A stretch of 64,000 bases of DNA, from assembly GCA_017499595.2 (NCBI GenBank), contig CM039001.1, positions 2,418,001-2,482,000 on the forward strand. Direction: 5' to 3'. Positions within the stretch are counted from its first letter, which is position 1, and each line of letters begins with the position of its first letter. The notes under the pieces are model-generated. The model saw only the letters and a program-made list of their open reading frames with translations, made no database searches and was not told the origin of the DNA. The stretch comes from Psilocybe cubensis. Lineage: Eukaryota. Positions 15,715-50,224 of this stretch are shown piece by piece. The translations under genes and the position numbers were made by a program.

Positions 15715-17213
15715 TTACAGTGTAGCTTCCCCGTTGATATCGAATTGTTGCCATTGATTGCCACTGAAGATCCATCCTCTGAAAGGTCCATGTTCACTCA
15801 GTAGCTGCTGCTTAGCGCTTTGATACTCAGTGGATGCTTCTTTTTCCCGGAGGTATATATCTATACGTCTGGAATCCTGGTTCAGAAACTCGGATTGAAG
15901 GTGAAAGAAGCAATATGCATACTTGGTTGTATCAGGGTTCACAAGTGCAAGAACATCTTTGTAGAGGTTGAAAAAAGATATTCTGGATAAGCATGGCCTA
16001 CATTAGGTCAATAGTCAGTTCTCTCTTTCTGACATAAAATGTATATACAACATACCTCGACTTCTCCCTATACCGATGTTTTGGAGAAACACCACGTTTG
16101 AGGCCGTTGATCAAAATCTCCAAATGTTTAGAGTCGCTGGACCAGCATATTGCTAAAACAAAGCAATCGTTGAATTTACGAAAAAGTGAAAATAAGGGAT
16201 ACTTACACCCATTGCAAGACGATGCCGATCCAAGGACTGCGCGCGAATGTGGAAACGGATGGTCCGTAAAATAAACGTTTGGATGGCGCACAGAGAAACC
16301 CACAGGCAGATCTTAAAGTATCATAAGCCATCACAGCGCACTGCACAGAAAAAAAAAACCAGACAACAAACCTTGAATCACACCCAACCTCTTCCAAAAC
16401 GCACGCTCGCAATCTTCCCTAGACACCTCTCTCAACTCGAGCGGAACCTCTCCAACCACTACAGCTTCGATATACAGCGGCGATAGCAACGCAGAGCCCA
16501 GTGCGCCTTGGATACCGAGAACGTTCCATCGGGCAATCTTATCGCTGCACGACATGCAGGCTGTCGGGGGCGAATCTGCGCGCCCGGGTTTGGTGCGCAG
16601 GACACCGAGGCGCGCGTAGTCGTCCCTCCCCCGAGAGGCGGCTGTGGGATCCAGTTCAGGGAACACAGACGCGTTTTTCATCGCGGCCATAACTTCGTCT
16701 TGTGTAGCGGCCAAATAACCCATCGACGCGTCTCCACCTAGAGTGTTATGGTGAATTGACAGTTCAACCTCATAGAAGACGGGTGGGCGCACAAGGGAGA
16801 GTGGACACGTAGAGATTGAGGTGAACGCCCTCTTGCAGGGTATACTTGCCATTCGCTCCGAGCTCTATCCAAGTGGATTTGAAAGGGTTGGTATCGTCCG
16901 ATGAGGAATGTATGCGCGCGATCTCTTCCAGGAACCACCGTAATGCAGAACGCCGTGCCAAAACTTCAGCGTGGCAATCATGTATGGTTTCTCCTCTGGG
17001 AGAAAATCGAGCCGTAGGTAGACATTTGGTGCCAGTTGCGAGGCTGATGATTTTTAAATCGTCTGCTTCAGTAAATGTTGAATGGCGTCGAGTGAGAAAG
17101 AAAGAAGCTAATATAGTCCATTGGGAATGTTGAGGTTTGTACGAAAAGGTCGAGTAAGTGTTGAGGATTGCTACGACTGCAGCATCATAGATAAGTTCGT
17201 GATCAAGAAGCAT
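15715..17213 (-). CDS. TAD1: tRNA-specific adenosine deaminase (ADAT1/Tad1)
   Basis: [38 protein letters not shown](G)[52 protein letters not shown]...FRGW. Confidence 0.92.
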
Positions 17214-22269: not shown

Positions 22270-22590
22270 AAGCGCCCCATATTTAGTGGTTCCGGCACGC
22301 ACCATATTCTGGGTAGGGCGGCAAGCCCTATTTTTTGGCGCTTCGGCACGCACCATATTCGCAAGCACCGTATTTCGGCGCTTTGGAGCGCACCATGTTC
22401 GGGGTATGGCGGCATGCCGGATATTTCATGCTTCGGCATGCGCCGCGTTCCCGAGCACCATATTTTGGCGCTTAGGCAAGCACGGTATCGCTGCCACCAT
22501 GTTTTGGTGTTTGGCACACGCCATATTCAGGATATGGCAAGCATCATATTTTAGTGCTTTGGCAAGCACCATATTTCAGTGCTTAGGCTA
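22270..22590 (+). repeat. Left subterminal array of degenerate ~24-bp repeats (GGCA[AC]GCACCATATTT..G[CT]GCTT)
   Basis: Roughly a dozen variants of gcaccatatt, e.g. ggcacgcaccatattc and ggcaagcaccatatttcagtgctt, about 190 bp inside the left TIR. Confidence 0.8.
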
Positions 22591-23557: not shown

Positions 23558-26500
23558 TTAAAAACGATAGAATACTTCAAGATATTGAGGATTTCGCTTT
23601 AGAAGTGCTGAAAAAACTTGATGTAGAAAGTTATCCACGGAATTCATCTCATCATTATCGTCAAGATGACCGTGATACAACTTCCCAAATGATGCACTTT
23701 CCCTCCGAATTTTGTCGGCGTCATCGTAGGCACAGTTCATATCTTCCATAATAAGCAGGTTGACAACGTGGGGGACCATGACCATGTCGAAAAATGATTC
23801 AGCGTTGAACGCACGACTTTTACGCACAGATTCTGATAAATTTGTGAATTCATCCCAAAACCTATATGCATCCTCTGACGAATATGCTGCCAAAGCGTCC
23901 TCTTGTCCAGAGATCTGTTCCACCGGAGATTTGAGTCTGTACAAACCTATGTCAAACGTACTGTCGACGAGCAACTCGGTAACATAGTTTAAATCGCCGT
24001 CTACAACAAGCTGAGTCCAATAGCTTGCAATCAGACTACGCACAATAGGACCATAGCTAGCCAATATTTTAGTTACGTAGATAATATATTGGAAGATGCA
24101 ATGAACGTACTATCCTGCAGATGCCACATTATAACAATACGGCGCTCTCTTGTCTAGTTGATTTAGGAATGATAATTTTGGGGTTTCGCATTTAAGAAGC
24201 ATTAAGCCCACAAATCTTCGCCATGGCAGAGATGTTTCGAATCTTGCACAATCCGTGCCGGAGCCTTCGAATATCATAGGGAAATTGTGCTTTACGTGAA
24301 GCTCAGCGATACGGTTGGCTACCTGGTCATAATCAATCTCGGCCACCGGCCAACCATTGCTGCGTGCAGCATCCAGCGAACTTGTCAGTCTCTCTTTGGA
24401 TCTGAAATAAAGGTGGCTGCAGAGGAGCTGGCTTTTGAAGGACATATTCTGGGCTGCCTTGAGACGGTTGCGATTGTTGGCAAGGCGAAACTGGGCACGC
24501 GCAACGGCATACTCTTTCATTATCATTTTCAAAGAAATATCTATCTCATCTTCAGGCGGGATTGTGTGATGGGGGTCGTCGGATTTAGAACAACCTTGAT
24601 GAGGGCATGATTTGATAGAAAGGTAATCCGAGCCATCCAATACGATCTAGACCGTTAAGAGGGTCAGCATATACCCAATAGAGACGGTCGACACTGAAAC
24701 AATCCTGTACCTCATTCTTCTGGAACGTAGCCTTCGGCTGGGACGTAGCCTTCTCCTGGGACGTAGCCTTTGGCTGGGACGTAGCCTTCGACGTAGCGTT
24801 CTCCTGGGATGTAGCCTTGGCCTGGGATGTCGTGTTCTCCTCAGAAGTAGCGTCTTCGCTGGGCGGAATAGTCTAAAGGTACGGTGATCTTTCAGTCAAA
24901 AAACAGATAGAGTGTGTAGACTTACCGTTGATTGTGATACCTCGTTATTACCGTCATTTTTCTGAGCGCATATCACGAGCACAGGGGTTAGAAATGTAGA
25001 AAGATACCGGCACATTTTCGAATGCAAACCTTTGCTTTCTTTTTGGCTAGTTCCTCAGCCTCAAGACTCGCTGCTTCAGCCGAGCGTTTCTGCAAAATGT
25101 GAAGTTAGATAAAGTAAACAATATGCCATCCAATTAAACAATACATACCATACGCTTAATCTCATGTATAGATTGCAAAGATTTGACTACTTTGCTCTAG
25201 AGTACGTTGAATAAGGCACCTTTTGAGGAAAAAAAAAACAAAAATGATAGCACACCTCTTAGAATGTAGTAAATTGTTAGTAGCAAAAAATTAGCATAAT
25301 AAATAAAAATCATTCGTTACCAACTACGGTACCGTTAAATTTACGCGGCAAAGTAGCTGTGGAAGAGCCAATCTCCTATACAGTAGTCATCAGCGGTGTT
25401 TGTATACTGAAGGCATGTATTTCCTACCTTTGATTTCTGAGAATAAAGATGTACAATAAAATGAAGCGCAGCGGTTGGTAAGATATGAGCCATACCTCTT
25501 TAGACGTACGCTCTTTTGAAGCGTTGGGGTCAGACTGTGTGGAGGCCTTTAGAGGCTCTGGGGCCGGAGCTCGATTCTCTTTTTCAACTTCCTGAAACTC
25601 GGGGTTTAGGCATAAAAATTAAAACATTGGACTTAAAAAAAACACACACATTGTGAGCTTCAGGCTTGGAAGAACCGGGTTTTCGTCCTGCTTTGGACTT
25701 CGCAGTTGGCCAGTGGAACTTGAGAGTGGAAGCTTCTTCTTGCACAGGACTGGGCAAGGCGGTCAAACCAATTGCAGGAAGGGCAGTATTCTTATTCTAG
25801 ATAGCATTCTGTTAAATTTATAACCCACGGCATAATCATGATGCTTGGTACCTGTATTTCAGAGTTAGAACGAAGCGGCTCTTTGCCTGTATTCTGGATT
25901 TTCCCATATAAACATTGAGCAAAGAATGGGAGGCAAAATTATAGAAAATAAAGAGCACCTTGACACCCTTGTTGGCCTTGGCCTTTGCAGTCACTTTTGA
26001 ATTTAAGACTTTGTCCTCTTCATCGGATTGATCGCTCTCGCTCTCAACAAACTTAAGCTTGCGTGCCTTACGCGTTACAGATCCAGGGGTCTTCATAATC
26101 GATCGTGGAGGAGGCTTGGATTTGGGAGTTGATGAAGGGGAGACGTGACGCTCTTTTTGCCGACCGGTCTTTGTGCGAGAATCTTGAGGTTTAGCTGATT
26201 CTGCACTGTTGCTGTTCAGCGCGGGTTTTGATGCCTTTTCCTAAGCACACTCCAAGGTCAATTACACCGGCATGCATTAAATTAACGCCAACTTACACGA
26301 GTAGTATCTTCTTGATGGTGTTCCTTGGACTTGCCTGCCAAATCCTCGTTGTCGGAGCATTCCTTGTCATTGGAGCATCCCTCGTCATCTTTCGCGTTGT
26401 TGAAGACATTATTGAAGTTTTCCTCGTCGTCCGAGCTGCAACTAATATTGTCCATCTCTACTTCAATGGGCCCAGAGTCATTAGCAGCCGTTCCATCGCC

Positions 26501-28321: not shown

Positions 28322-31300
28322 TCAAATTTGAATATCTGCTAAATTGTCAGAAGCACTCAGGTTAGAAAGCAGTGTGGTCATACCAGAAAGAGGTAAAGTC
28401 AGCTGGGAAGTAGCCCAGTTGTTGATGGTCACCAGCCGTTGTCGATCTTGTGAATGACTAGTCTTGCAAAGATGATGTTTAGACAGATAGGTCTTAGACC
28501 ACGCTTTGATATGCTCCTGCTTGATAACAACATTCTTGCTGCGACAAAGAACATGTTGATTGATGTGAAGGCCGGCTTCCCATGCGCAATCCAAAATGAG
28601 AACTTCTTCTCCCAGATAATCTATCAACTCGCGAATGAACCAAGCAGTCCATCGGCAGTCAACAGGCGGAAAGTTAAACCAGTGCTCAAGGATGGTCGAA
28701 CAAAATTGCAGAACGCAGGTCTTCGAAACGGTGTTATACTTAAAAGATCGAGGAGCGTAGACGTAAACAGATTCTCTTGGTTGAAACCCGCTGATAAAGG
28801 AAGCGGCGTCGAACTCTGCATTTGTTTGTACAGCCAAAACTTCTTCAACCCGTCGAACCAGTACACCCAAGCCATTTGAGATGTCGTCCTTGCTACGATA
28901 GGCTTGCTCGAGGACGCTGTCCAACCACTCCCATAATAGAACGTTGGAAAGGAGAAGCTGCTTTTGTTGGAATTGGAGATCAAGTTTCGAAATTGTCTTC
29001 TTCTGGCTGTATGAAGCGTATAATTCGCAGGCTCTACGAATGTCACCTGAAATCACAGGCTGACTGAGAATTTCAGATATCAAAGACACGTCAAGCCACT
29101 TTGACTGCCCTTGAGAGGGAGTGTTATCGATTGGGAGGCGTTTTAAAGCAGCCAAAATTTTTGATATGCATTCTGGCCTCAAAGCATTCAAAAATTTGCT
29201 TGTTCCTATACAAAAAAAGCGGTCAGAAACCTTGAATTCAGGCTGAAACAGCGGAAAAATTGAACCAACCTAGGGATGTTACCGAACTGCTATGCCGGGT
29301 AATTCGTTCTTTAGGAGCAGCATTTTTCTTGGAAGCTTATAGTTTTGTTTGCACAGCGGACATTTAGTAAGGTTTGAACTGACGAACCTTTCGATTTTGT
29401 GACCGTAGAATCTCTGTCTCCATATAGATTGTCTTCGAAGTTCAGATTGATATCTGGCCCGGAGTCGCTTTCGGGATCCTTGCGATGGCTCATTCGGCGA
29501 GCCTTGCTTGAGGTCAAGGTTTCTAAATTTTTGCTTGTAGATATTTGAACTCGACGGAGACAATAATATTTTACATACGTTGTGATGTATTTCTACGCTT
29601 TTTGATATGTAAATCCATTTCAGAAACATCCCTAGTCCGTGCCCGTTTAACCGCTCCTGTGCATGTGTCAGTTATCAGGACGATGAAAGCATAATAAAAG
29701 TAAGCAACTAACCCTTGCGCGAACCTGTTTTGCTCTGTAATCCAATCACGGCTTCTTCGTCGTGGTCTCCAGCGGTTACACACAAAGGAATAGACTTTGC
29801 TGAGCTTTCCATGTGTTTTTTCCATTCTTGTACAGCCTCTTGGAGTTCAACGTTACCGTACGGTGCTTCGGACATAGAATCCGAGTTACAAAGCCTTGCA
29901 AGATCCTCTGACGAAAGATCCTCGATGGATGAAACGCCTAATCCACTAAGGATGCCTGAGTAGTCGGTACCGATTTTGACATCATCGCCTCTCCATCCGG
30001 GACCCAGATCCCACTCATCCGCCGTAACTCTCTTATTATCGATAACCACAGAAACCATTTTCATGGCTAACGATTTATCAACGCGTGGAATCAATTCCGG
30101 AGGCAACTGACGGGCAAAATGCGTGATTGCTTGGAGAAGAAGTCGACTGAAGTGATTGATATGAGCCTTAGGAGAAAGTAAAGAACCTCCGTCCGCAGTC
30201 CATGTAGCTTGCTTGCACATTGGCGTCTTCGATAATTTGTGCGACCTAAATTTCATTTAAGATGCTGGGCATGATGTAACGTTTATGCTGACAGACGTAC
30301 ACTGGATTTCGCATTTCAATACCGATGGCAAAAGTTGTATCATTAACTCCAGCCGCAAAAGCGACGCTATCAACCCCGTCAATTAGTTGACCAGGAGGGT
30401 AACCGATGAGAGTTAGGCGATAGTAGATTTCGTTGGGTTGTTGGACGTAAATGGGTTGATGACCTCCATGGAAATGGAGACCAGAGAAAAATATGACGGA
30501 AAACTCCTCCATGAGATACGCCAATCCGCAGCATAAAATGTAAAAATTTTCAGGCGCCACGTCGGCCCTGTAGCGACTGAGAACGTGCATACAAGTTGGA
30601 GCACCTGAACTGTCGGCAGCGTCAACATGTGCCATCCCAAATTTTCCGAGCGAGGATTCCAAGGCAACATCTAAGCCAAAAATGAAGTTCAGATTGTATA
30701 ATAGTTATGCGGGACACACCATGCTGTGGAACTCCAGGAGCTACATTCAGTTGCCAAGACGGCCAGACGCAATTATCATCATATCCTACTGGCGCTAGCG
30801 AGGCCACCTCGGCTTGACGCTTCAGGCGCTGGAACAAATGCTTGGATGCTTTCTTAACTCCTTCAATACCAGCTTTTGCCCCAGCCTGAGAATGCAATCA
30901 ATTGACGTGTAAAACGTTCAGCGAACGACGTACTTGAAGTATATTGAACCGCATTTGCAGATCATAATCCCTGGCCTGAGTATACACTTTGCTCTGAACT
31001 CCTGGAGCGCTGAGGGATTTCTGTGCCTGTAGGGTTGATCCAAGGGTGTAGCATCGAGGACCGGACTTGATATTAACTGCGCGATCGCTTCGTTCAAACT
31101 GAATACCCCCCGAGTACTCTCCGTTTGTGTCCTTAACGGGTTTCTGCGAAGACATAAGTTCTTGAGGCCCCAAGATTTCTTCCTGAAGTCTGCGGCATTC
31201 TTGAAGGTCTATTGGATCTCGCTCATGTCTGACGGTTGTTTAATCACAAAATCAAATGCAAAAAAAAAGATCCTTACTTGCTCAGTGTCCAGGATTTAAG

Positions 31301-31979: not shown

Positions 31980-33023
31980 CGGAAATTGGGGGATGGAAGG
32001 GAAAGAGAGCGGAAGAACGAATGACAACCAATTAGTCTGGGCAGCTGAGCATAACAATAACGGGCACGTACCGGGACTCGGCGAGAAATTGAAATACAGA
32101 ATGTCAATTCCACCCGCACCTCATGCAAACGGTCTCCAATCCGCCTCCATTTTTCAGGCACGTACCTATGGCCCGTTTCTTTCCACTTTTGTTTCAAACT
32201 TTTGTCTCAAATTTGTCTGACCTCCAAGTACAATTAATACGCTTTATAAAAGTAAGGACGCCCCAAGAAAGCGCCATTTTGTCCATAGTAAGGGCAAGTA
32301 GGTGCCTGTAACCCTGGAAATCATTCCGCCGCCCCACCGTCGATTACTTAGGCTGTGACGTCTACGGTAACCAGCCCTACGTACGTATGGAACTAATGCG
32401 TGTGTAGATATTCCTACGCGCCTACTCGGTCATCCGAATACATACAGATGGCTAAGATGGGTAAATAATGTACGATAATCTTTGTATATACGCCGTCGAT
32501 CAAATTCAATTCGAGTTTGAGACCGCGCTGACCTGCCGCCGCGCGAGTAAAGCAGGAGTACAATCTATTTATCGGGCTGGCTAAGATCACGTCTGGGTAC
32601 TGATATGCAAATGACGACATACCGGGACCAATCCGCCATGCTGGCTCTTCGATGTCGTCATACGTTATTGAGCGGGCACTGCTGCTGCGAGGCGCAGACC
32701 AGCATACCCCCTACAACTGTAGGGTAGGAGGATCAATGCATATCCCTTATTCTGAATTTAGAAGATAAAGGCGCGATCGACTTGTGCGCGCGCCCAATTA
32801 ATTTGTCGCGAGTCGCTGCCTGTGCGTACTTACCAGTTATTATAATCGAGCGTTGTCAATACGGTATACACTAGTTACAAAGACGCAACAGATTTTCTAA
32901 TTCTGCCTAGGTATCTCTACTAACTAGACGGTACGGTTTTCCTCCTCCCGTATTGGGCATGTTGGCGGAAGAGAGAAGAAGGAAACCGTGAGAAAGTGTT
33001 GAATTGCCCAACTTGACGCACGG

Positions 33024-33067
33024 GATTTCGAAATCCATGCCGAGTGTTCGGCATGGATTTCGAAATC
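33024..33067. repeat. Perfect hairpin (20-bp arms, 4-nt loop), copy 1
   Basis: gatttcgaaatccatgccga-gtgt-tcggcatggatttcgaaatc. Confidence 0.95.
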
Positions 33068-33287
33068 GCCGGGTACTTATTCCCGATACTGGCAAAAGAC
33101 AACTCTTTTCCGATCCTCTACCACTCAAAGGCGTACGCTGCCGTAGCGCGCGCGGGGGGCATAACGATGTCGATCGTAGATTAGGTATATATAATAGCTT
33201 AGATCGTACACATTTTATATACATGAAGTCGTAGTAACATGATATTCCTTCCCAGAAAACATCGACGCGCATCGATTCGTCTCGATC

Positions 33288-35932
33288 ATGAAGCGGGTCG
33301 GTACACAGGGATATCGCAACAGATCAAAAACTGATAGATTTCATTGAAGCAGCGTTCCAATGTCCGGAAAAATGTCGCTCAATTTCTGGATGTAGAAGCG
33401 GGAGTTGACGATGGCGAGGAGGCGGACTCCGGCGAGGAAGAGTCTGAACAAGAACTAGACAGTACGCGCCTATCTTATCTATTCTCCTGGGCAGCGCATA
33501 CCGCGAACACCATCCTTACAAAACAATCCTAGACGAGTTTCTCGATGAACAGGAAGTCGACGGAGTAGACGTCCACCCTCGGTCGCTGGATGAATATGCT
33601 CAAATGAACGACGAAGCTCTAGAGGCGTTACTACTGCGATCCAAGGAAAGAAGCCTTGCGGAATCAAACCGACGAAAATCAAACTGTGTAGACGCAGCAG
33701 ATGATATATTTTCTCCCAGTTTTTTGCCTGTATTAACTGAAGCGGATTTTCCCCTGTGGAAGGTGACTTGTCGCGTAAGTTCTACCCTACGCGTCTTGTC
33801 TACTTGTTATGTTGACGTTTCCATAATATAGGTTGGCAGGGAAGAATTGGCTATTGCATCTTTACTATTAAATGCTCAGGACAAGCACAAAATTCGATCT
33901 GCTTTTTCTGTTGAGAGGATGAAGGGATGTATATTTTTGGAAACACTTTGGAATCCCAATACCGTCGATCTGTTGAAGAAGACTCCGGGCGTTTTGGTAA
34001 CAAAGCGAGGCGTACAACAATCATTAGTTTTGCCTGACGATTACCGAGAAATACTTCGGGGACAAGGCAAAATCTCACCCCCAAAACGTGGATCCTGGGT
34101 CACCGTCTCAAAAGGTGCATATTGAGGAGACGTCGCGCTGGTGAAGGAAACAGAAGGGAGGCTTGTACGCCTGTTAATGCTTCCTCGTCTTCCCTTACCC
34201 GGTGCAAGCAGGGTCACCAAAAGAAGGAAGACAGACCATTCTGGAGATTCTGTTCTTTGGTCGAAGACGCAATGGACGGAGTGGTTGAATTCTCAAGGGC
34301 GCTCCCATCAGGTCGTAGAGCATACGGAACACTGCTGGCAAATAGGGAATACTCTTTTCGAACATGGACTGATGATTCAGGACATTGGACAGGATTCTAT
34401 CGATGTCGTCGTCGAGGAAATGCCCTTTCGTTACTTCCGGCTTTTTCAACAATCTACGCACAGCTCCCTGGACTCCTCATACATGCTACGTCCCACCGAG
34501 TGGAAATTTGAACCTGGAGAGGCCATTCTGGCGGCAAGTATTGAAGGATCGCAATCTAGAGAAGCCTCTGTAGTCGCTATCCATCCGTACTATTTAGAGG
34601 TGGCATACACAACCCATGATTCGCATAATATCGCAGATACCTCGCTGGTGCCGTGGATTCGCGTGACAAAATTGTTTCAACTCGGCGATTACGTTTCTGT
34701 ACAGAGCGGGGAAAATCAGGGCGTTGAAGGTTGGCTAATTGCGAAAACAAATGAGGCGGTCGTGATAGGACTTTTCGACTCGGACCTTCTGACAATCCCA
34801 AGTTTGCAAGTCTTGGACAATATACAGGTAAGACTTCGTCCTTTTCACCTTGAGTAAATTTTCTGACAAAACGTTCGATATTTAGACAATAGAAGCGCCT
34901 ATAAACTGGGTGCATGTTTCAAAAGCTCCTTTTCAACATCGGATGAAAGAAAACAAGAAAAAGAAAGTTGAAATCCCTTCTGAGGCTCGTCATTTTTGGT
35001 GTGATACAGAAGTTTTGATATCAAAACAGCATCATCCTATGAAAACTCGCCGAGGCAAAGTGGTGGACGTTTCGCCTTCCGCTGATTCTATACAAAACAT
35101 GAGAGTGCTAGTAGAGCTATTAGACTACCACGCAGCCTGTCCTTTTCAAAAAATCCTTTTAAATTACGGCGACGTTGTTGACGCAAGGTAACGCTTTCGA
35201 TTCTTACACCGTATGACGCTGCGAGATCGACGTTAATAAAAGTTTAACAGGACGCTTTTGCCTCTTGGAGATCGACATGCCTTTGATGGGATGCCTACCC
35301 TTCTTAATAACCCTGACAGATCTGTCGACACTCTATCACAGTCTGCTGAACGATCTGGTACCCCTATTCCAACCAGCCCAATCGCCGACGGGCAATGGGA
35401 TCCTTCAGCACCGTTACCCCACAATCCTCAATCCTCAATGTCGCCCTCGGAATACTCTCATCCCTCCCACGTTCTATTCAAAGAAATGCTGGTGGGACAG
35501 AAAGTCGCCGTCTATATCAAAGGGGGTTCATTCAAAGATTCCAAACGACATTACTTCGTAACTATCGCTCGAGACGAAAGAAACCATTTCACATTGCTTT
35601 TGCTGCGCCAAAAAAGGCCTTCAATGACTCTACAGCCAGAATGGGTTACGCCAAAGCATCCCAGCGGGACTCACACTAACGACCTGCTGTTTGTTGTTGA
35701 TGGAGAGAACCAACACCAATTTGTTCGCCGGATCGCTCAGCGAGACTTAGTGAACCAATCCCCTATCCTTTTAGTCAATCCGGTAATGAGGAGGGAAGGG
35801 CAATCCGATATTTTATGCGGGGTTCCTTTTGAGGTAGAATCTACTGCGTTAGTCATTGTGGAGGAAACAGACTTGGAGAGACGTGCGAGAGATGCGCTGA
35901 TGGCAGATTTGAGAAAACCATGGCGCTGCTGA
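33288..35932 (+). pseudogene. Spt5-like (acidic N-terminus, NGN and KOW domains) cargo gene with an in-frame TGA at 34123-34125
   Basis: QFLDVEAGVDDGEE...EFLDE, LWKVTCR|VGREE, IRSAFSVERMKGCIFLE (NGN), RGSWVTVSKGAY*GDVALV (KOW1-like), FEHGL, KLFQLGDYVSVQSGENQGVEGWL (KOW). ORFs 33847 and 34141 are in the same frame and separated by one TGA. Confidence 0.72.
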
Positions 35933-36319
35933 TATGTATCTCACTCTAATGTAAATCGGCCGGACCCAATTCGCGGAAACGAATATATCTGTTTATTAAG
36001 GCGTTGGCATTACTGGCTTCTATAGCTAGCTGAAACTAAAATGCGTATCGCGACGTAAGTATCTTCCGGTTACGTTTGCTTCCTTGGATCAGGTGGCGTG
36101 GGCAATATTTATGTTATTTCACGCCAGCGTGCGTGTTGAGTTTTTGTTCGAGCTTTGTTTTTTTTTGCTTCAGCTCTTTCCCCCTTGCCCGCCTTTTGTT
36201 CGTAAATCGTCAGTACTCGATACTCAGGCTTTTGACAATTAAGGTAACTTTCATGTGCTTATCAAAGAGCTAGCATAACAATCTGATGTGCGGGTTCTGC
36301 GCTGCTTGTAGCAAACACA

Positions 36320-37166
36320 ATGTGTCGAACTCTCAATGCCTGCCACCGAGGGGACAAAAACATAGTCATTTCTGTGCTGGATCTCTGTCGTGACACACGA
36401 AACTACGGCGGTATGCCCTTCATCTTTCTCAGAAAGTTTACGCTGCTCATTGCCAATCATCACACATATGCAGAGGGAGTTGAGGTGCTACAATGCTACC
36501 TAGCGGACTGCTATGAAAAGAACACCGCGCTTTCACAGGATGATGTGCAACTCTTTGCAGACTTCTTGCAAGACTACGTCCAATGCGTGCGCCGCTCTTG
36601 GTTATCAATTTCCCGACCTAGGACCATCCCACCGCCTGGACCTTCAGCTGCCGCCCGCCAGATCCTCAATGACATAAAAAAAGATGACCTGATTGTTTCT
36701 TGTATCAAGGCCCTTGAGATTTCTTTTGACCTCTCAAGGCTTGCACCACGTCGCAGCCGGGCATATATTTTGGTCATGGTTCTGTAAGTCAAGGGCTGTC
36801 TATCAGAGCATTCTGGCTGACCCTGAGTACCTTTTAGAATTTCAACATTCCTTCTGGCTGTATCAGAGGTGGCTGAGAGGTCTGAAGGTCGGCGCTATAC
36901 CCTGGAATCTTTCAATTTTCTCCAACGTGCAACCCGTGAAGCTCGACAAGCAGGTATCTCGCGTAGAGACGCAGTCTATAGAGTTATACACACTCAAGTT
37001 GGATCGCTTTTCAGCTCTCTGTAGCTGTTTTGTTTGCCGCTGTTGTTGCAGAATAGGTTTTGTCTTTAGCATCCAACAATTGTTAATTAGTTGTCGTACG
37101 TTAACTGCCAATACATCTCCCCATCAATCTACAGCCTGTAGATTTAATCTGCCACAACTATGGTGA
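36320..37166 (+). CDS. Uncharacterised cargo ORF(s)
   Basis: 155-aa helical-looking ORF 36320-36787 overlapped by ORF 36693-37166; no family recognised. Confidence 0.35.
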
Positions 37167-37564
37167 ACCAAGAGCATGATCTATATAGAACGGTATGCAG
37201 TAATTATGTTTGTTTCTATCTGCACAGTATGCACGCATATCATTCTAGCTTGACAATACCTTAATTGTGATACTAGTAGTTGGATAGCCGGTACCCCTAT
37301 ATTTTGATGACCCTGTTCCGCTGACCAGTCATCAATATAATAGCACTATGTCACATACGCCAATGACTGCTCTTATGTACCGGTTGCGAAGCCCTGAAAC
37401 AGCTTTATAACCAAGGGCCTGTCACTGCTTGTTAGTCCCGTCTTTATATACCTCGACACTGCTTAATCTCTGGCTGCCATAGCTCTCAATTGAACCTCCT
37501 CGACGATTGGATTGATTTCTCTGATTCTAGTTAACTTGCTAACACCTCCCGACCCATAGTTGCT

Positions 37565-38080
37565 ATGGATGTGGCTCAACATTGCGACCAAACTCGCGTC
37601 GATGTCCCAACACCTGAGTCAAACACCTTTCCCGTCCTCTCAAATCGTAATGATTCCCACTTCCAATATCAGTTACTCAATCTGGCAATGACCTGCGATA
37701 CGGTTTTTGGTCTTACCAGGGCGGCAAATGCGCTCCACAACCTCTTGTTGGAGAACTCTGGGATTCTCGAAGAACGTATTATAACTTGCAGTCGATCCAT
37801 GGTCGAAGAAGCGGCTGAATTCGCGGATAACGACGTTGTGAGGGCCTCTTCTCGCTGTGTGTTGGGCGTGAAACGCACGTTCTGACCACCCTTTCATTCA
37901 GTTTGAACTTGCCACTATCCTTGCTGCTATCCCCTCGGTCAACTTTCATTTGAATATGGATCTAATTCAAGATGCAGCACGTGCCGTCTATGTCGCAGCT
38001 GGTCTACGCCGAGACCTAGATGTTCGTTGAATTCCTATTCCTCTGATTCAAATTAACCATAAGCTAACGTCACGGGTCTA
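37565..38080 (+). CDS. Uncharacterised small cargo protein, probably 2 exons, convergent with the transposase
   Basis: 106-aa ORF from ATG 37565 and a probable second exon (FELATILAAIPSVNFHLNMDLIQDAARAVYVAAGLRRDLDV...). Confidence 0.4.
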
Positions 38081-38149
38081 GGAAGCGTTGAAAATATGCA
38101 GCTTGGCCTTGACAAAAAAAGAGTGAATTGTTTATGCAAAGCTTATTTA

Positions 38150-41100
38150 TTATACAGCGTCGTCGTCAGGCTCCTCAGAGTCGCCTCTGTCAACAAATAT
38201 AGTCCGCGAATACTCGTCGCTTCTATCTACAATTGCCCACCCCTTTTGTTCTCGATATATTCTTCCAATGACGTTTGTAATTGACTGTAAATCGAGCGCT
38301 ATCATTGCCCGCTTGTCTGATTCCCTGAAGACCGTAAGGGTTTTTGCTGCATTTTGCCCATTTGTTCTGTAGGGAGTCACAACCGCCAGCAGCCGAAGGG
38401 ACCGCTTCCACAAGCCCCAGAAATCATCGCCCGGGACGTTGAATTCGAGAATTAACTCCAAACGTCCGTAACAGATCTCCGCATTCTCGCGTATAACATT
38501 ATTATTCCGGTCCTTTGTTACGCCAAGTAGTTCATACTGGCGGTAAATATCATGCCCGCAGTTAATAATCAGTCACATTTAGGTATTTTTCCAGGAGTAA
38601 GTTGTCAAAAACGCACCTTCACCCAGGATCTGCTTCTTTTATTTCCAATCTCATGCTCTGAATGTACTGCTATCCTATCCCCGCCCATAATCCTGACCTT
38701 TCCCCAACTTACTAACGTCTGAGGAAGCCTTTCTTGGATTGAGCGGGGGCTCTTCTTGATGATTGGACTAATATATTCCGCAATTCTTTGTCTAATGTCA
38801 CGGCTTGGCTTGTACGCTTTGTTTTGTGGCGGCATAAGGATAGAAAGTGGATCTAGTATTATATTTATTTGTTTAGGAAGTTAAAAATATTTTTGTAAAG
38901 CATGATATATATGATATTTATGGTCAACTCACATTGCGCATATAGGTGTTCACGTTCTTTCACTGAATCTCGTGTACTTCGAGAAGGAACCCCGTGCGAC
39001 TTTAAGTCGTACAAGTTGTCAATCATAGACAGATAAGCCCTGTTTATGACAGCGTTATCCAAATTTGCCCATGGACTGACGTGGGATCGAAGCTTGGTTC
39101 TCATAAAACCGCAAAACCGCTCCATCCAAAACGTCCAAGTAGCCCAGACAGGTCCACAATAGCGTATATTATCGCATAAGTGTAGCATGCCGTGAAGAGT
39201 TAATACACACATTGGCAGTCGGTCGTATTTATACTGGTAGTAAAGCCTGCAGACAACATCGAAGACTGACTTTAAATGGGCACTGATTTATGCTTACTTT
39301 TCGTAATCCTGGACCCAGCTTGCAATGCCTATTTCGAGCGCGCTAAGATCCGCACGCGTCATGGTCAAGGCTGTTAACTTTTTCATAATGTTGACCAGTC
39401 GAATGAAGTGATGATAATAGATTTCTTTCTTAAATCTGTCCTTCAGAAGAAACGGGGCAAGGTATATAAACCAAAATGACCATCCCTCTGCATTGAGATA
39501 CTTCTTGTTGTTGTAGGGGTTTCCGAGCGCCCCGACAAAATACGAGGGTATCCACTGGACGGCATATTCAGACTCTTTCGCAATTTCTTCCCATATATGC
39601 CCTGGGATTATGAAGTCATATTCCTCCTCGTCATCAAAGCCCTTGAACCTTCCCAGCCAGAGATCTACAAGATTTTTGACTACATTTAGGAACAAGAGAT
39701 GCATGTAGTCCCAGGGCATCCCCCGAGCGTAGTCCAGTGATTGCACACGCTGAAGTGCAGGCATTCCCTTAATACCCGTTTGCATGGCTATCTCTCCTCG
39801 CCGCTGCGCAGTTGGCGTTTGTAGCATTCTTTCTGTGGTAATTTGCCAGTCGACATGCTTTCGCAGCGGTAAATTCAAAGGATCATAAATTTTCTCTCGA
39901 CGGGTTGCCAACAGCGGCACATAATAGACCCCATTTCTTTTCCCGGCAGGCTTGTAGAGCGCTCCATGGATTCGACATGATCTACACGGACACAAGCCGT
40001 TGTGCCCTTTAATCTTAAGAAATTTTTCCATTGCGACAATATCTCCGGTTGTAAAAATACAATAGGCACGGAGAAGAAAGATACTGCGAGTAATGCAATT
40101 GAAGGTTTTGATGCCTCTGGCTAGCGTCGCCAATTCATCGTCAAAAGGATAGAGGAACGATGTAAGATTTTTGGGGGCGTTTGGCCCTGGAACAACCCCA
40201 AGACAAACCACACGTGCTGAATGAGTCCTAACGTCCGATGGTAAGCTTAAGATTTGCACAAGTATGGGCATCGCGGATGGTCCACTTGGCCTATATTTGT
40301 AGAGGAGGAAGCCGTCCATACATAACGACAGCGCAATATCGGTAGGAGCGGAGAAGTATTTATGTGGAAGCTGTTGTCCGTCAACGACAACGTATGTTCT
40401 ACGCAATTTCTTGTAATGTCCGCAGTCAAACACATCCTCAATATCGTCCGAATCTTCCTTGTTATCGTACATGTTCTGTCTATAAGACAAAAGGTTCGCC
40501 GTTTCTGGATTTGCAAAAAGTGCCTGGAGTTGCGGTGATAGTGGAATATAACGGAAAATTCGACGAGATCTGCCTCGCGAATCAAAGCGTGGTTCCCGGC
40601 AATAAAAACATAGATTGTCGTCCTTGAATTCTCCCGTGTAAGCCTTGCACGAATTAATGCAACAATCGATTATTTGCGGCACAAGGTCTGACAGCTTAGC
40701 CACACGATTAACCGTGGCTTTCCAAGAACTTAACGGCATGCGATGGCCAAAATAGTAGCGCATATCATCATAGACGGCGCGGGAAAAATTTGACATGATT
40801 CGAAACCTGAAAGCCTGTATATGGTCTACGTCCTTTAATGTGAGACTATGGCAACCTGTGAAGCATACAGCTAAGTCAAACGCATACTGAAAATCAAAGA
40901 ATGTCAATAACTTACTATGCTCCATGACATCTATAAGGTCGGAGTTGCTGTCACGATCACTCCAATCTGAAGTGTCCTCTACATTCAGTTCCTCCTCAAG
41001 AGCAATCCTTGCGGCTATTTCGTCTTCCTCCACATATTCAAAGCTAAAGTCGTCTGGGTGGTCGGAAGGTTCGCCGGGACCCTGGGTTGAACCATCACTG

Positions 41101-41879
41101 CCCGTTGTAGAGTTTGAAATTGTGTCGAGGAAATCATCTCTATGGAGAAAATTGTCTGAACTAACAGGGCTCTCAAGGCCATTGTCGCTTCTAGCGGGTG
41201 TTTCCTCGTTCAATCGTTGGATTGGAATGTGAGGGCTTGTATCTTTGGCCTCATCCTCATCCTCATCCATTTGATGAAGTAAACCATCACTATAGTGCGA
41301 ATTTTCCAGGCTGACAGGGGTATCAAGGCCGTCATCCCTTCTTGGAGGAATATCCACATCCAATCGCAGGATTGAAGGCTGAGGGCTGGTATTATTTTGG
41401 GGTTCATCCTCATCCATTCGATGAAGGTCGCAGTTAACACGAAATTTACCTTCCGGAAGACGGCGCTGCTCATCCTCATCCATCTCACTAAGCTCTTCAT
41501 TAACATTATATTCAGCTTGGGATATATCTGAACGGCCCCCAGCGCCCGACGAATCTTGTTCTATTAATAGGTCTGAGTCGTTATCACCTCGATATCTGTG
41601 AAGTACTATAGATCAACGGTCCAAGTTTAATGCGATTTTGATAAATACAACATACTGTGGACTATGATTTGAACGATTTATAGCGTCGGTAGAATAATCA
41701 GTTTCCTCCTCAGTGTCGGGGGGTGGTGTCCTTCCAACCATCCTGTAATGTTTAGCCCGAGTTTGACGCGAAATGGGCTTTCCCATACTACGGCAGTTGA
41801 GTGCGCAACCACAAAGCACCTTTCCAGTTCTTTTGCGGCGGCGAGTCTGACGACGCTTGCGATGGGTAGTGCGACGCAT
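38150..41879 (-). CDS. CACTA/En-Spm (Transposase_21, TnpD-like) DDE transposase, apparently intact, with introns
   Basis: N-terminal CxCxxxC...H, DCCINSCKAYTG..C.YCREPR, YIPLSPQLQALF, IALSLCMDGF, GPNAPKNLTSFLYP, GDIVA, GHNGLCPCRSC, DYMHLLFLN, LHGMLHL, GPVWATWTFWMERFCG; 729-aa uninterrupted core ORF. Confidence 0.92.
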
Positions 41880-42118
41880 CGATAACTAACTTTACATACG
41901 AGTATATATGAATTAAATTGAAAACACGATACACCATGCGTGAAAGCGACGTACTTGTGTACGAATTCAGTACGGAATGTTCTTATCAAATTTCTCGATC
42001 CTATCTATATACTGGTGCTGTGTACTACTGAAGTTTACTAATTGTCGTTCGTTTCATTATAGTGTTAGAAGGGAAAGGAAGAAACCCTTCAACCACGTGC
42101 AAAGCAGGAGTAAGTACG

Positions 42119-42169
42119 CCGCTATTTCGAAATCCATGCCGAGCATCGGCATGGATTTCGAAATAGCGG
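42119..42169. repeat. Perfect hairpin (24-bp arms, 3-nt loop), copy 2
   Basis: ccgctatttcgaaatccatgccga-gca-tcggcatggatttcgaaatagcgg; the core is identical to the hairpin at 33024. Confidence 0.95.
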
Positions 42170-43286
42170 TGTATAAGTTTACGGCTGCGAAACCGTGGCA
42201 CGTTTTAGCAACTTACTCCTTCCCATTCTGGTACAGACGCAACAGTACAGCAGAAATCACCTGGAAGCTCGTCACTTGCAGGATAGACATAGTATGGTAA
42301 GTAATTCGTGTCTCCAAAGTATTCGCCTCTTACCATTTCTCGGCGCAAGCTTCTTGGATACCAGGCGGAGGAGGGGCAGTTATGGGCGTAGATGTGCTTT
42401 TTGTCGACAACAGCACTTGCGGAACAGTGACACAATCAGCAGTGGGAGGGGCGGAAGATGCGGGGCTTGCTCATCTTAAATTCCTGAACGACATCCAGCT
42501 GATAGAGACAACTCACCACCGTCAGCACCTCCCTTGGACAATGGGTCAGCCGCAAATGACTCATCTAGTATAGCTAGTATTCTATGATATAGACAGAGAA
42601 AAGATGGCTGCGGCATTATCATAGTTATCCAAATAGTCAGGTATATTGTAACTACACAATCAAATTATCTTGTAAGCTGCTTGTCTCATTCTTTAGAACA
42701 AGCCTCGTCTGCACCCACGGACTCTCGCCTCCATCCCAATATATAGGCCGGACTGCTTGTTGAATCTTGCCCATCCTGCTCCCTGACGACGAGCGGCACA
42801 TTGCTGCCTATCTTTGTCAGTTATAGGCTTGTAAATTGCGGTATTGAGTCAACATCCTGAACGACCGTTATGGCTCACTCACTGAAGGGCCCAGTCTTAC
42901 GCAGAGGTCAGTCGTACTCCCTCTGCTTTCTAACTCTTTACTAACCTTCGTATAAGAATGTAAACCTACCACGACGCTTTTCTTTGCTGCATGCGGCATC
43001 TATCGCTGGTGTGCGGTCGGCTTAAAGTACTAAGACTGCGGTGGATCTGGATGTGATGAGTGCAGGCGGGATATGGCAACGTGCCCCCATCTCATAGGGT
43101 AAGCCGCCCGCGCCGCATATACCAGCGCACATAGTGATGCTTGCTGAGCCAGATTCCGGGGTTGGGACAGGGTGGAGAAGAAGGTATGGGTGGGGAGGTG
43201 GGCAGGATGCAAGGGATGGCGGTGCCTTATCTTCTCGCGTTAGGGATGTTTGGGAGGGTGTACGTGCTTTTTCTGTCATATACCCA

Positions 43287-49688: not shown

Positions 49689-49842
49689 GGGCCCTATGTG
49701 TTGTATGGGTCCACGGGATAAGTGTTGGGGAGTAATGGACGCGAATGGGCGCGGTAGTTTCGTCGCAAACGGGCCTTACGCGTCGTATGGGTCCACGGGA
49801 TAAGTGGTGGGGAGTAGTGAGCGCGAATGGGCGCGGCGGTTT
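49689..49842. repeat. Two-copy tandem duplication with a period of about 82 bp
   Basis: gggccctatgtgttgtatgggtccacgggataagtg... (49689) versus gggccttacgcgtcgtatgggtccacgggataagtg... (49771). Confidence 0.85.
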
Positions 49843-50224
49843 TGTCGAAAACGTGGGACCGAGCTAGTGGGTGATTGTCTGTCGCTGTGGTCCTCAACGT
49901 GCACCGACGACTCTGTAGAGGAGTTAGCAACTTGATTTTGTTAGAGAATATCAAAGCAGACGCACCGTCTACATGTGAACCCGTCTCGACGTTCCTTCTC
50001 AATCTCCTATCCCTCAACCGCTCGTACAAATTTTCTCTGATCTTCTCCGGTAGAATTTTCTGGCATCGGTTGTAGAGCCAGTCGCGGGCTTTCTCGATAG
50101 GGGCCATAATGTCGCCGAGGAACGTTAGGACGATGCACAATATCCCGCCAATGAAGATTGGGACTACCATCAGGAGGTTGAAGTAGTGCGTCGCTTTGTC
50201 CACAGGGATGTGCAAATCGGGCAT
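49694..50224 (-). CDS. Small single-TM cargo protein of unknown function
   Basis: MPDLHIPVDKATHYFNLLMVVPIFIGGILCIVLTFLGDIMAP... has a hydrophobic stretch followed by a basic region; 3' exon structure uncertain. Confidence 0.45.
   Translation of the reverse strand: MPDLHIPVDKATHYFNLLMVVPIFIGGILCIVLTFLGDIMAPIEKARDWLYNRCQKILPEKIRENLYERLRDRRLRRNVETGSHVDGASALIFSNKIKLLTPLQSRRCTLRTTATDNHPLARSHVFDKTAAPIRAHYSPPLIPWTHTTRKARLRRNYRAHSRPLLPNTYPVDPYNT

Follow-up and report, generated by a model that had tools for sequence, protein, structure and literature searches.

A gene in the window, a stretch of 64,000 nucleotides of Psilocybe cubensis DNA, encodes an Spt5-like protein. Spt5 keeps RNA polymerase II moving and is the large subunit of the elongation factor DSIF. 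We give about even chances to the gene being the dead remnant of an Spt5 paralogue associated with transposons, with intact members that replace the host Spt5 on polymerase II. Intact relatives lie beside transposase genes in many mushrooms, and mobile DNA may therefore carry its own transcription helper. Spt5/NusG is, to our knowledge, the only transcription factor conserved in every domain of life. Private NusG/Spt5 copies are carried by bacterial plasmids and gene islands, whose long operons they protect; we know of no eukaryotic transposon carrying such a copy.

The Spt5-like gene (Table 1) starts with the ATG at 33288 and ends with the stop codon at 35930-35932. Its five introns are 56-71 nt long and are bounded by GT..AG in 5/5 cases. 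The joined reading frame has one internal stop only, at codon 218 of 779, which is the in-frame TGA at 34123 already pointed out in an earlier note on this DNA. The annotated protein P0002, 99% identical to the window copy, has Arg at this codon. The window copy is therefore a pseudogene, inactivated by a change of the CGA-to-TGA type; the loss of function that the earlier note had proposed, with a CGA in other copies as the check, is borne out to this extent by the Arg of P0002. Two versions of the lineage of the window copy are found among annotated proteins. Two presumed RNA contig sets share almost no words with the Spt5-like gene, and just two 18-nt pieces from the presumed RNA contig set X13 were placed in its region. 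Splicing avoids the stop codon in two annotated gene models of the locus.

Table 1. Features of the Spt5-like gene and its surroundings (window positions).
Feature	Position	Strand	Remarks
TET-like gene	28322-31239		outside the inverted repeat
Left palindrome	33022..33069	.	22-nt arms, 4-nt loop; about 220-265 nt upstream of the Spt5-like ATG
Left arm of 59-nt inverted repeat	33025..33083	.	pairs with 42107-42164; candidate terminal/subterminal repeat
Spt5-like gene	33288..35932	+	six exons, 779 codons, Psilocybe cubensis; pseudogene
Exons of Spt5-like gene	33288-33296, 33353-33461, 33533-33774, 33832-34827, 34886-35187, 35251-35932	+
NGN domain	33742..34071	+	residues about 110-200; split by intron 33775-33831; coordinates converted from residue numbers
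KOW1 and linker insertion	34081..34491	+	residues about 204-340; 4ytk match
Premature in-frame TGA, codon 218	34123..34125	+	within KOW1 motif G-A-Y-(R)-G-D; Arg in P0002
KOW2-KOW3	34507..34924	+	residues about 346-465; split by intron 34828-34885; 4ytl_A match
Fourth KOW-type barrel (exon 5)	34985..35260	+	split by intron 35188-35250; in P0004, not in database model P0002
Two more barrels and C-terminal helix	35474..35923	+	after disordered linker
Transposase gene (Transposase_21 and DUF4218-like part)	38150..41879	-	tail to tail with Spt5-like gene; ATG at 41879 is a manual reading
Right palindrome (28-nt arms, 42115-42173) and right inverted-repeat arm (42107-42164)	42107..42173	.	about 240-290 nt upstream of the transposase ATG

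The assignment to Spt5 comes from sequence profiles, from predicted folds and from the order of the domains. The Pfam Spt5-NGN profile (PF03439) scores 25.7 bits on the near-identical P0002, above its cut-off of 22.4; the single exon by itself reaches 19.7 bits. Conserved NGN signature residues are seen in the alignments, and the region, modelled with pLDDT >90, matches 2exu (Z 11.3, rmsd 2.0, 86 residues). The Pfam KOW profile gives 15.5 bits, below its cut-off of 22.3, and the KOW domains were recognized by fold: in the AlphaFold model the KOW1-linker segment superimposes on solved Spt5 4ytk (Z 12.8, rmsd 2.9, 113/116 residues) and KOW2-KOW3 on solved Spt5 4ytl_A (Z 13.5, rmsd 2.4, 99/99 residues). 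The Spt5-type protein with NGN and KOW domains described in the earlier note is thus found again, the profile proposed there passing its cut-off for NGN and staying below it for KOW. Single-domain structure matches (VIA) range over Z 11-13.5, and the best Foldseek matches are Spt5 chains (E 3e-21). Similarity to solved Spt5 chains is collinear across residues 4-424 (phmmer, E 1.2e-13) and extends over 403 columns in a profile-profile comparison with Agaricomycete SPT5 (hhalign, E 1.4e-46). The fourth barrel has five strands (P0004 residues 445-515, pLDDT about 86-96) and aligns with a conserved family block; six KOW-type barrels are counted when the two predicted models, P0002 and P0004, are combined.

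The two ends of the protein also correspond to the earlier description, which had named an acidic FLDVEA start and a lack of CTR repeats. The N-terminus has the FLDVEA motif together with an acidic run; this region scores 16-18 bits with Pfam Spt5_N (PF11942), under the cut-off of 24.2, and aligns with host SPT5 from residue 86 on (hhalign). No TPAW-type motif of the CTR was matched in the window protein (0 matches). Relatives have 0-2 copies of TPAWDPSSRTP, placed where the window protein has the disordered linker that precedes the last two barrels, and host SPT5 proteins have 2-4 pattern matches of TPAW type, chiefly TPAWNASSRTP.

The family to which the gene belongs counts 579 representatives at E<=1e-3 and 184 at E<=1e-10, and all named members looked up are from Agaricales. 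At least 11 annotated loci, distributed over three lineages, were found in one P. cubensis assembly (from listed accessions), the sister lineages having at least 5 loci each. In a quick-search tree, drawn without Ascomycota and non-Agaricomycete Basidiomycota, 23/23 family rows form one clade (SH-aLRT 100) on a long stem (1.52), sister to 14 Agaricomycete SPT5 rows (SH-aLRT 99). The sequences show that the family descends from a fungal Spt5; besides NGN and the KOW barrels (KOW1 and its linker, KOW2-3 and others) it retains the acidic N-terminus and a vestige of the fungal CTR motif of TPAW type. Identity between the window protein and host SPT5 (P0244) is 23% over 359 residues. The strong divergence noted earlier is thereby quantified, and with identity this low the gene is not a recent capture of host SPT5, in agreement with the earlier note; the separate clade and its stem length point the same way. 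The rate of evolution of the family is several times that of host SPT5. In three lineages dN/dS is 0.34, 0.24 and 0.38, with a synonymous excess in each (p about 2e-5 to 5e-5). The related copies are thus under purifying selection, the opposite of the neutral evolution of homologs against which the earlier note had weighed its reading.

In the window, a transposase gene lies 2.2 kb downstream of the Spt5-like gene and is convergent with it. Its Transposase_21 domain (Pfam) scores 36.6 bits against a cut-off of 28.6 on 39294-41609, while DUF4218 (Pfam) scores 23.8 bits, under the cut-off of 27; the region at 36.3-38.1 kb has no Pfam match and no usable Atlas match. The pair is bracketed by the 59-nt inverted repeat, which holds the sole two strong palindromes within 25-47 kb of the window, and no other inverted pairs or TIRs were found around both genes. 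The left palindrome contains two of the four copies of TCGGCATGGATTTCGAAAT, a sequence with 4 matches in the window vs 0 in 100 shuffles. True transposon ends and a target-site duplication were searched for in the window copy and not found. The 11-bp direct repeat AGACGCAACAG (32881, 42235) was tried as a target duplication and dropped because 200 shuffles score equally high on average. In run X11 the read depth of the Spt5-like gene equals that of the right flank, which indicates that the subfamily is low-copy in this run. No read joints skipping the whole unit are present among the joints listed.

A metagenome scan with a six-protein alignment as query identified 74 related loci, and linkage was counted in the 22 lineages that remained after deduplication and had flanks of 3 kb or more. 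In 11/22 lineages a gene of the Transposase_21, Plavaka or CxC2/KDZ type is found nearby, a count made with no control set of ordinary fungal genes for comparison; in 8 of those 11 the transposase is within 2.5 kb. DUF6698 is encoded 1.0-1.7 kb downstream in another 3/22 lineages, and a transposon gene is absent from the flank examined in 8/22. The neighbouring cut-and-paste transposase genes fall into at least three Pfam families. The linkage of homologs to Transposase_21-type genes that the earlier note had anticipated is therefore observed in those 11 lineages. At one locus (L010) the Spt5-like gene is enclosed by 33-nt CACTG inverted repeats, a sequence not present in the window. These repeats have no matching target-site duplication, so the unit may be composite; a second locus (L013) has the same repeat end followed by a different flank. 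The transposase module is on opposite sides of the Spt5-like gene in L032 and L046, and the neighbouring transposase of L015 is part of a nested insertion, from which it follows that the neighbourhood is not always one element. An inverted repeat of at least 790 nt at L040 was not used: it ran beyond the frame set and may be a duplicated gene.

The earlier note had also proposed a link with TET/JBP genes, which was not found: there are 0 Tet_JBP matches among the 129 ORFs that flank the 74 related loci, and the TET-like ORFs of the window have no tblastn match at these loci. The TET-like gene of the window has about twice the read depth of the palindrome-bracketed segment. Its ORF has no Pfam match at E up to 0.01 and no PDB sequence match below E 0.63; Atlas alone points to Tet_JBP clusters (score 0.97), which we take as a lead. 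TET/JBP dioxygenase genes on fungal DNA transposons were reportedly described by Iyer et al. in 2014. According to a later paper, such genes are carried by several unrelated mushroom DNA transposon lineages, and Spt5, NGN and KOW have 0 occurrences in its text (Kojima 2025, PMC12730594). Literature searches gave no report of a fungal transposon Spt5, a point on which Iyer et al. 2014 and the supplements of Kojima 2025 may bear.

How intact members of the family could act is suggested by the features they keep and those they have lost. They would bind the polymerase II clamp via NGN and KOW1, displacing host Spt5, and, with the CTR nearly lost, the elongation complex on genes of the element itself would be an altered one. 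Such a complex might sustain transcription or shield it from the silencing that acts on methylated repeats as they are transcribed. Candidate loading or control sites are the palindromes found upstream of both the Spt5-like and the transposase gene, and the family may be a eukaryotic counterpart of the bacterial NusG paralogues RfaH and ActX/PrfaH on plasmids and gene islands. A broader proposal, which we put forward tentatively and regard as rather unlikely in its full extent, is that mushroom DNA transposons of several superfamilies carry an Spt5 that replaces the host's on polymerase II at the genes of the element, is recruited by the hairpin-forming palindromes upstream of these genes as RfaH is by ops, and makes transposon transcription resist termination or co-transcriptional silencing linked to methylation or small RNAs.

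The same conservation could serve an opposite purpose. NGN and KOW1 are the best-conserved parts of the family (37% and 43% mean pairwise identity), its CTR is cut to 0-2 motifs vs the 2-4 pattern matches of host SPT5, and it is under selection, all of which would suit a decoy or dominant negative that sits where Spt5 binds polymerase II, or sequesters Spt4, and so blocks a silencing-type pathway without promoting elongation. No result separates this reading from the elongation one, yet a dominant negative acting genome-wide on an essential factor should come at a high cost to its host, and one assembly nevertheless has at least 11 annotated loci; we consider a decoy unlikely.

A helper of transposition comparable to TnpA is a further step down in probability. 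Its KOW/NGN barrels would bind palindromic DNA or hairpins near the element ends and aid transposase assembly, with no action on polymerase II. This would account for the palindromes, present upstream of the Spt5-like gene in 10/21 lineages (2.6 expected) and at either end of the unit in the window, as well as for the frequent vicinity of transposases. However, a complete collinear Spt5 layout, with even the acidic start and KOW1 linker in place, is odd for a plain DNA-end binder, and many transposase elements of the same type do without the gene, as judged from the read depth of the transposase part of the window, about 1.5 times that of the Spt5-like gene.

The family might instead consist of host genes, Spt5 paralogues that multiplied in a lineage-specific way and serve the fungus, for example in repeat silencing, with its repeat-rich location being incidental. 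Silencing roles are known for other Spt5 paralogues, and the side and orientation of the gene relative to the transposase vary among lineages. We find this very unlikely: the proteins have no AGO-hook (1-4 GW/WG dipeptides each), near-identical family copies sit on different contigs, the gene is within a TIR-ended unit in L010/L013, and several deep lineages of the tree coexist in one genome at odds with species relationships. Least credible of all, and already disfavoured, is a functionless fragment captured once and copied along with transposons, for although the window copy is broken, nested and rearranged contexts exist and short fragment pairs have dN/dS of 0.5-1.3, near 1 (which indicates that many copies decay), open frames of 650-950 residues are retained across many species at 23-35% identity and dN/dS is low in the three lineages given above.

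If the replacement of host Spt5 by a palindrome-recruited transposon protein is true, it would be the first NusG/Spt5 anti-silencing factor encoded by a eukaryotic mobile element. A selected, transposon-linked Spt5 family in mushrooms would also give a handle on how DNA transposons stay transcribed where the genome methylates and silences repeats. Family members are labelled 'Transcription elongation factor SPT5' or 'RNA-directed DNA methylation 3' in databases, and NCBI names one model of the window gene after KTF1; these labels obscure the single true SPT5.

Among known systems, canonical Spt5 (host copy P0244) has in common with the family the acidic FLDxEA start, NGN, KOW1 and its linker, KOW2-3 and additional barrels, collinear over the columns aligned above. 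The family differs by its divergence, by its size (about 780 residues in the window protein vs 1136), by NGN scores of 24-38 bits vs 71-91 bits in canonical proteins, by a CTR that is lost or down to 1-2 motifs, and by being multi-copy and adjoining transposases. Plant KTF1/SPT5L (RNA-directed DNA methylation 3) and ciliate Spt5m (Paramecium) are likewise lineage-specific Spt5 paralogues, with roles in repeat silencing that tie them to transposon control; a phmmer match to 8hyj_W (E 1.4e-10) covers NGN-KOW1 only. Both are single host genes acting against transposons, whereas the family studied here sits with them, and the WG/GW Argonaute hook of KTF1/SPT5L is missing from it (1 dipeptide in P0002; 1-4 in full-length members). 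TnpA, a DNA-end binder that maize En/Spm (CACTA) elements encode as their second protein, likewise has its gene beside a Transposase_21-type transposase in elements with repeated inverted motifs near their ends, but it has no sequence or fold relation to this complete Spt5 homologue. The transposon-borne TET/JBP genes described by Kojima offer a parallel in that a host-type chromatin or transcription gene rides on several unrelated mushroom transposon lineages; the protein is a different one, and no Tet_JBP match lies beside the 74 related loci. Bacterial mobile DNA and islands carry their own NusG paralogues (RfaH, plasmid ActX/PrfaH), reportedly recruited at a site near the promoter (PMC11880322, PMC7819879). 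These are two-domain proteins with a proven ops site, whereas the fungal family is a eukaryotic multi-KOW Spt5 whose recruitment is guessed from palindromes. The resemblance would imply no common membership below the NusG/Spt5 level; by analogy, what the two share would be a logic, that of a mobile element with its own copy of a universal factor.

The Spt5-like gene of the window is split by five introns of 56–71 nt, all with GT..AG borders. Its joined frame has 779 codons and a single internal stop, a TGA at codon 218 (34123–34125). A word-based search matched it to three annotated proteins, all from Psilocybe cubensis. Two of these, P0003 and P0004, were modelled on the window sequence itself and avoid the TGA, one by splicing and the other by a shifted frame; the P0003 model extends beyond the gene into unrelated ORFs at 36.3–38.1 kb. 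The third protein, P0002, is 99% identical to the window protein, with only four differing residues, and has an arginine at the position of the stop. The window copy is dead, an outcome that the earlier note had considered probable. Each of the four amino acid differences, that at the stop among them, is a transition at a CpG site, the CpG being present in whichever copy retains it (CGG/Q, TGA/R, CGT/H, TCG/L). This would be the pattern expected of methylated-cytosine deamination in repeats; the CpG observed/expected ratio of the Spt5-like unit is still about 1.0.

Coordinates of features in the window
Feature	Position	Strand	Remarks
Host-type ORF	16331–16864	-	adenosine-deaminase (editase) domain, E 9e-20; left of the repeat-rich block
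Dispersed direct repeat	22274–22576		36 nt, five copies
Host-type ORF	23558–24109	-	RTC4-like domain, E 9e-11; left of the repeat-rich block
TET-like ORFs (multi-exon gene)	28322–31239	-	Atlas likeness only
59-nt inverted repeat	33025–33083 and 42107–42164		encloses the Spt5-like and Transposase_21 genes
Spt5-like gene, six exons	33288–33296, 33353–33461, 33533–33774, 33832–34827, 34886–35187, 35251–35932	+	
ORFs between Spt5-like gene and transposase	36287–38100	+	fused to Spt5-like gene in P0003; no Pfam match, no usable Atlas match
Transposase_21 gene	38150–41879	-	Pfam 36.6 bits, cut-off 28.6
Tandem duplication	49689–49852		82 nt, 85% identical

The assignment to Spt5, made initially from sequence motifs, was upheld by Pfam, phmmer, profile, Foldseek and fold comparisons. 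At the level of Pfam profiles, the expected match of P0002 was obtained for Spt5-NGN (25.7 bits, cut-off 22.4) whereas KOW stayed under its cut-off (15.5 bits, 22.3), as did Spt5_N (16.4 bits, 24.2). In a phmmer search against solved structures, residues 4–424 are collinear with Komagataella Spt5 residues 111–559 (E 1.2e-13). The family profile matches 14 Agaricomycete SPT5 proteins (E 1.4e-46) over 403 columns that span the acidic start, NGN, KOW1 with its linker, KOW2 and KOW3. Two AlphaFold models computed with family alignments (mean pLDDT 78.4 and 77.1) predict the order NGN, KOW1 and linker, KOW2, KOW3, a fourth barrel from exon 5 and, after a disordered linker, two more barrels and a terminal helix. 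Their top Foldseek matches are Spt5 chains (E 3e-21), and single domains match the solved Spt5 structures 4ytl_A (KOW2-KOW3, Z 13.5), 4ytk (KOW1-linker, Z 12.8) and 2exu (NGN, Z 11.3). The reported lack of CTR repeats was confirmed: no CTR-type motif was found in the window protein, and its relatives carry 0–2 copies of TPAWDPSSRTP. The latter resembles the host SPT5 repeat TPAWNASSRTP, whose pattern gives 2–4 matches per host SPT5 protein.

An exhaustive HMMER search with P0002 retrieved 579, 184 and 29 cluster representatives at E≤1e-3, ≤1e-10 and ≤1e-30, respectively. Among the 37 long matches submitted to a Pfam scan, a divergent set shows NGN scores of 20.8–38 bits where detected and no NGN match in seven members, whereas canonical Spt5 proteins reach 71–91 bits and display every KOW family. 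Names were looked up for 30 representatives (a few are unnamed), and the named non-canonical ones all belong to Agaricales (Psilocybe, Panaeolus, Pholiota, Flammula, Cyclocybe, Collybiopsis, Tetrapyrgos, Lentinula). P. cubensis has three Spt5-like lineages; each of the two others is represented by accessions for five loci on different contigs. A quick maximum-likelihood tree of 46 rows places all 23 family rows in one clade (SH-aLRT 100, stem 1.52), sister to the 14 Agaricomycete SPT5 rows (SH-aLRT 99). End branches within this clade exceed those of the SPT5 rows several-fold in length, and lineages from one species are dispersed across it. This separate position, together with the 23% identity over 359 residues between P0002 and the host's single canonical SPT5 (P0244, 1136 residues), agrees with the earlier view that the gene is not a recent capture of host SPT5; as Ascomycota and other Basidiomycota were left out of the tree, only a fungal, not recent, origin is safe.

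Synonymous and non-synonymous differences were counted between related metagenome copies. The dN/dS is 0.34, 0.24 and 0.38 for the locus pairs L010/L015, L020/L025 and L032/L046, with a synonymous excess in each (p about 2e-5 to 5e-5), 0.61 for L006/L008 (p 0.10) and 0.21 for L050/L053 (11 changes); pairs that include short fragments give 0.5–1.3. Stops are present in several copies. The family is thus constrained and its single copies, including that of the window, decay.

The Transposase_21 gene lies downstream of the Spt5-like gene, arranged tail to tail. The only two strong palindromes of the 25–47 kb region both fall within the 59-nt inverted repeat, and one palindrome is positioned 220–290 nt upstream of each start codon. 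A search for another terminal repeat or a target duplication around the two genes found none. The ORFs lying between them could represent an additional, third gene of this unit. Read joints at 42282–42321 skip 38 nt (34 reads in sequencing run X11, also contigs of X8 and X5) and others at 33093–33163 skip 69 nt (13 reads in X11); they represent indel variants, the first just outside the palindrome-bearing repeats and the second just inside them.

Relatives were found at 74 metagenome loci, which form 43 groups at 95% identity, 22 of them with flanking sequence of 3 kb or longer to one side. Linkage to transposases, suggested by the earlier note, was found in 11 of these 22 groups (Transposase_21, Plavaka or CxC2/KDZ; within 2.5 kb in eight of the 11), a raw count made on loci of this family alone. 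A DUF6698 gene is located 1.0–1.7 kb downstream in three further groups, and eight have neither. In L010 the Spt5-like gene and a transposase are enclosed by two inverted 33-nt CACTG repeats separated by 12.8 kb; in L013, which is 99% identical, the likeness ends at the same repeat and a different flank follows. The lack of a matching duplication at the L010 ends and a nested element inside L015 count against a simple element picture, as does the position of the transposase module, which lies on one side of the Spt5-like gene in L032 and on the other in L046. The modules shared by the latter loci (L032:337–7190, L046:3007–9905) are 95–96% identical, the transposase module being inverted, and CACTGGCT-like motifs are found near their borders. 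Upstream of the Spt5-like gene, 10 of 21 groups carry a palindrome whose arms reach 14 nt or more (2.6 expected). Arms measure 50–91 nt in L021, L036, L040, L050 and L054. In L010 (7073–8508) the 5′ end of the gene is overlapped by a palindrome whose arms, about 700 nt long and 99% complementary, are separated by 35 nt; it recurs in L013, from another assembly.

A three-way linkage including TET/JBP genes, also envisaged previously, was not supported. None of 129 flank ORFs of the 74 loci matched Tet_JBP, and the TET-like ORFs of the window matched nothing in these loci. In the Atlas, one of them (30246–30701) is similar to Basidiomycota clusters that carry Tet_JBP (score 0.97), which provides a lead; Pfam and PDB sequence searches gave no match for the gene. 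The TET-like ORFs lie outside the 59-nt inverted repeat and their summed raw-read depth in X11 (about 115–180) is about twice that of the adjoining Spt5-like gene (about 70–100; right flank 80–90). TET/JBP genes are described in Kyakuja, Zisupton, EnSpm, Plavaka and Helitron elements of mushrooms (Kojima 2025, PMC12730594), a work that makes no mention of Spt5, NGN or KOW. Full-text literature searches turned up no description of an Spt5 carried by a fungal transposon.

In Agaricales the Spt5-like family constitutes a paralogue of Spt5 that is under selection, evolves fast and is associated with transposons; its role is putative. NGN and KOW1 of Spt5 hold the polymerase clamp and upstream DNA. 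They are the best-conserved parts of the family (37% and 43% mean pairwise identity, respectively), which suggests that intact members sit on polymerase II. There they would take the place of host Spt5, and their near-absent CTR could alter what the elongation complex recruits, favouring continued transcription of the element or hindering co-transcriptional silencing. That the protein is instead a decoy appears unlikely, and a TnpA-like binding to element ends slightly more so. A host silencing factor is a still less probable identity, and no GW/WG-rich Argonaute hook was found in the protein. A neutral passenger is hardly credible, for the family does not evolve neutrally overall. For a transposon-linked Spt5 paralogue acting on polymerase II, the nearest parallel, in logic, would be the bacterial NusG paralogues borne by plasmids and islands.
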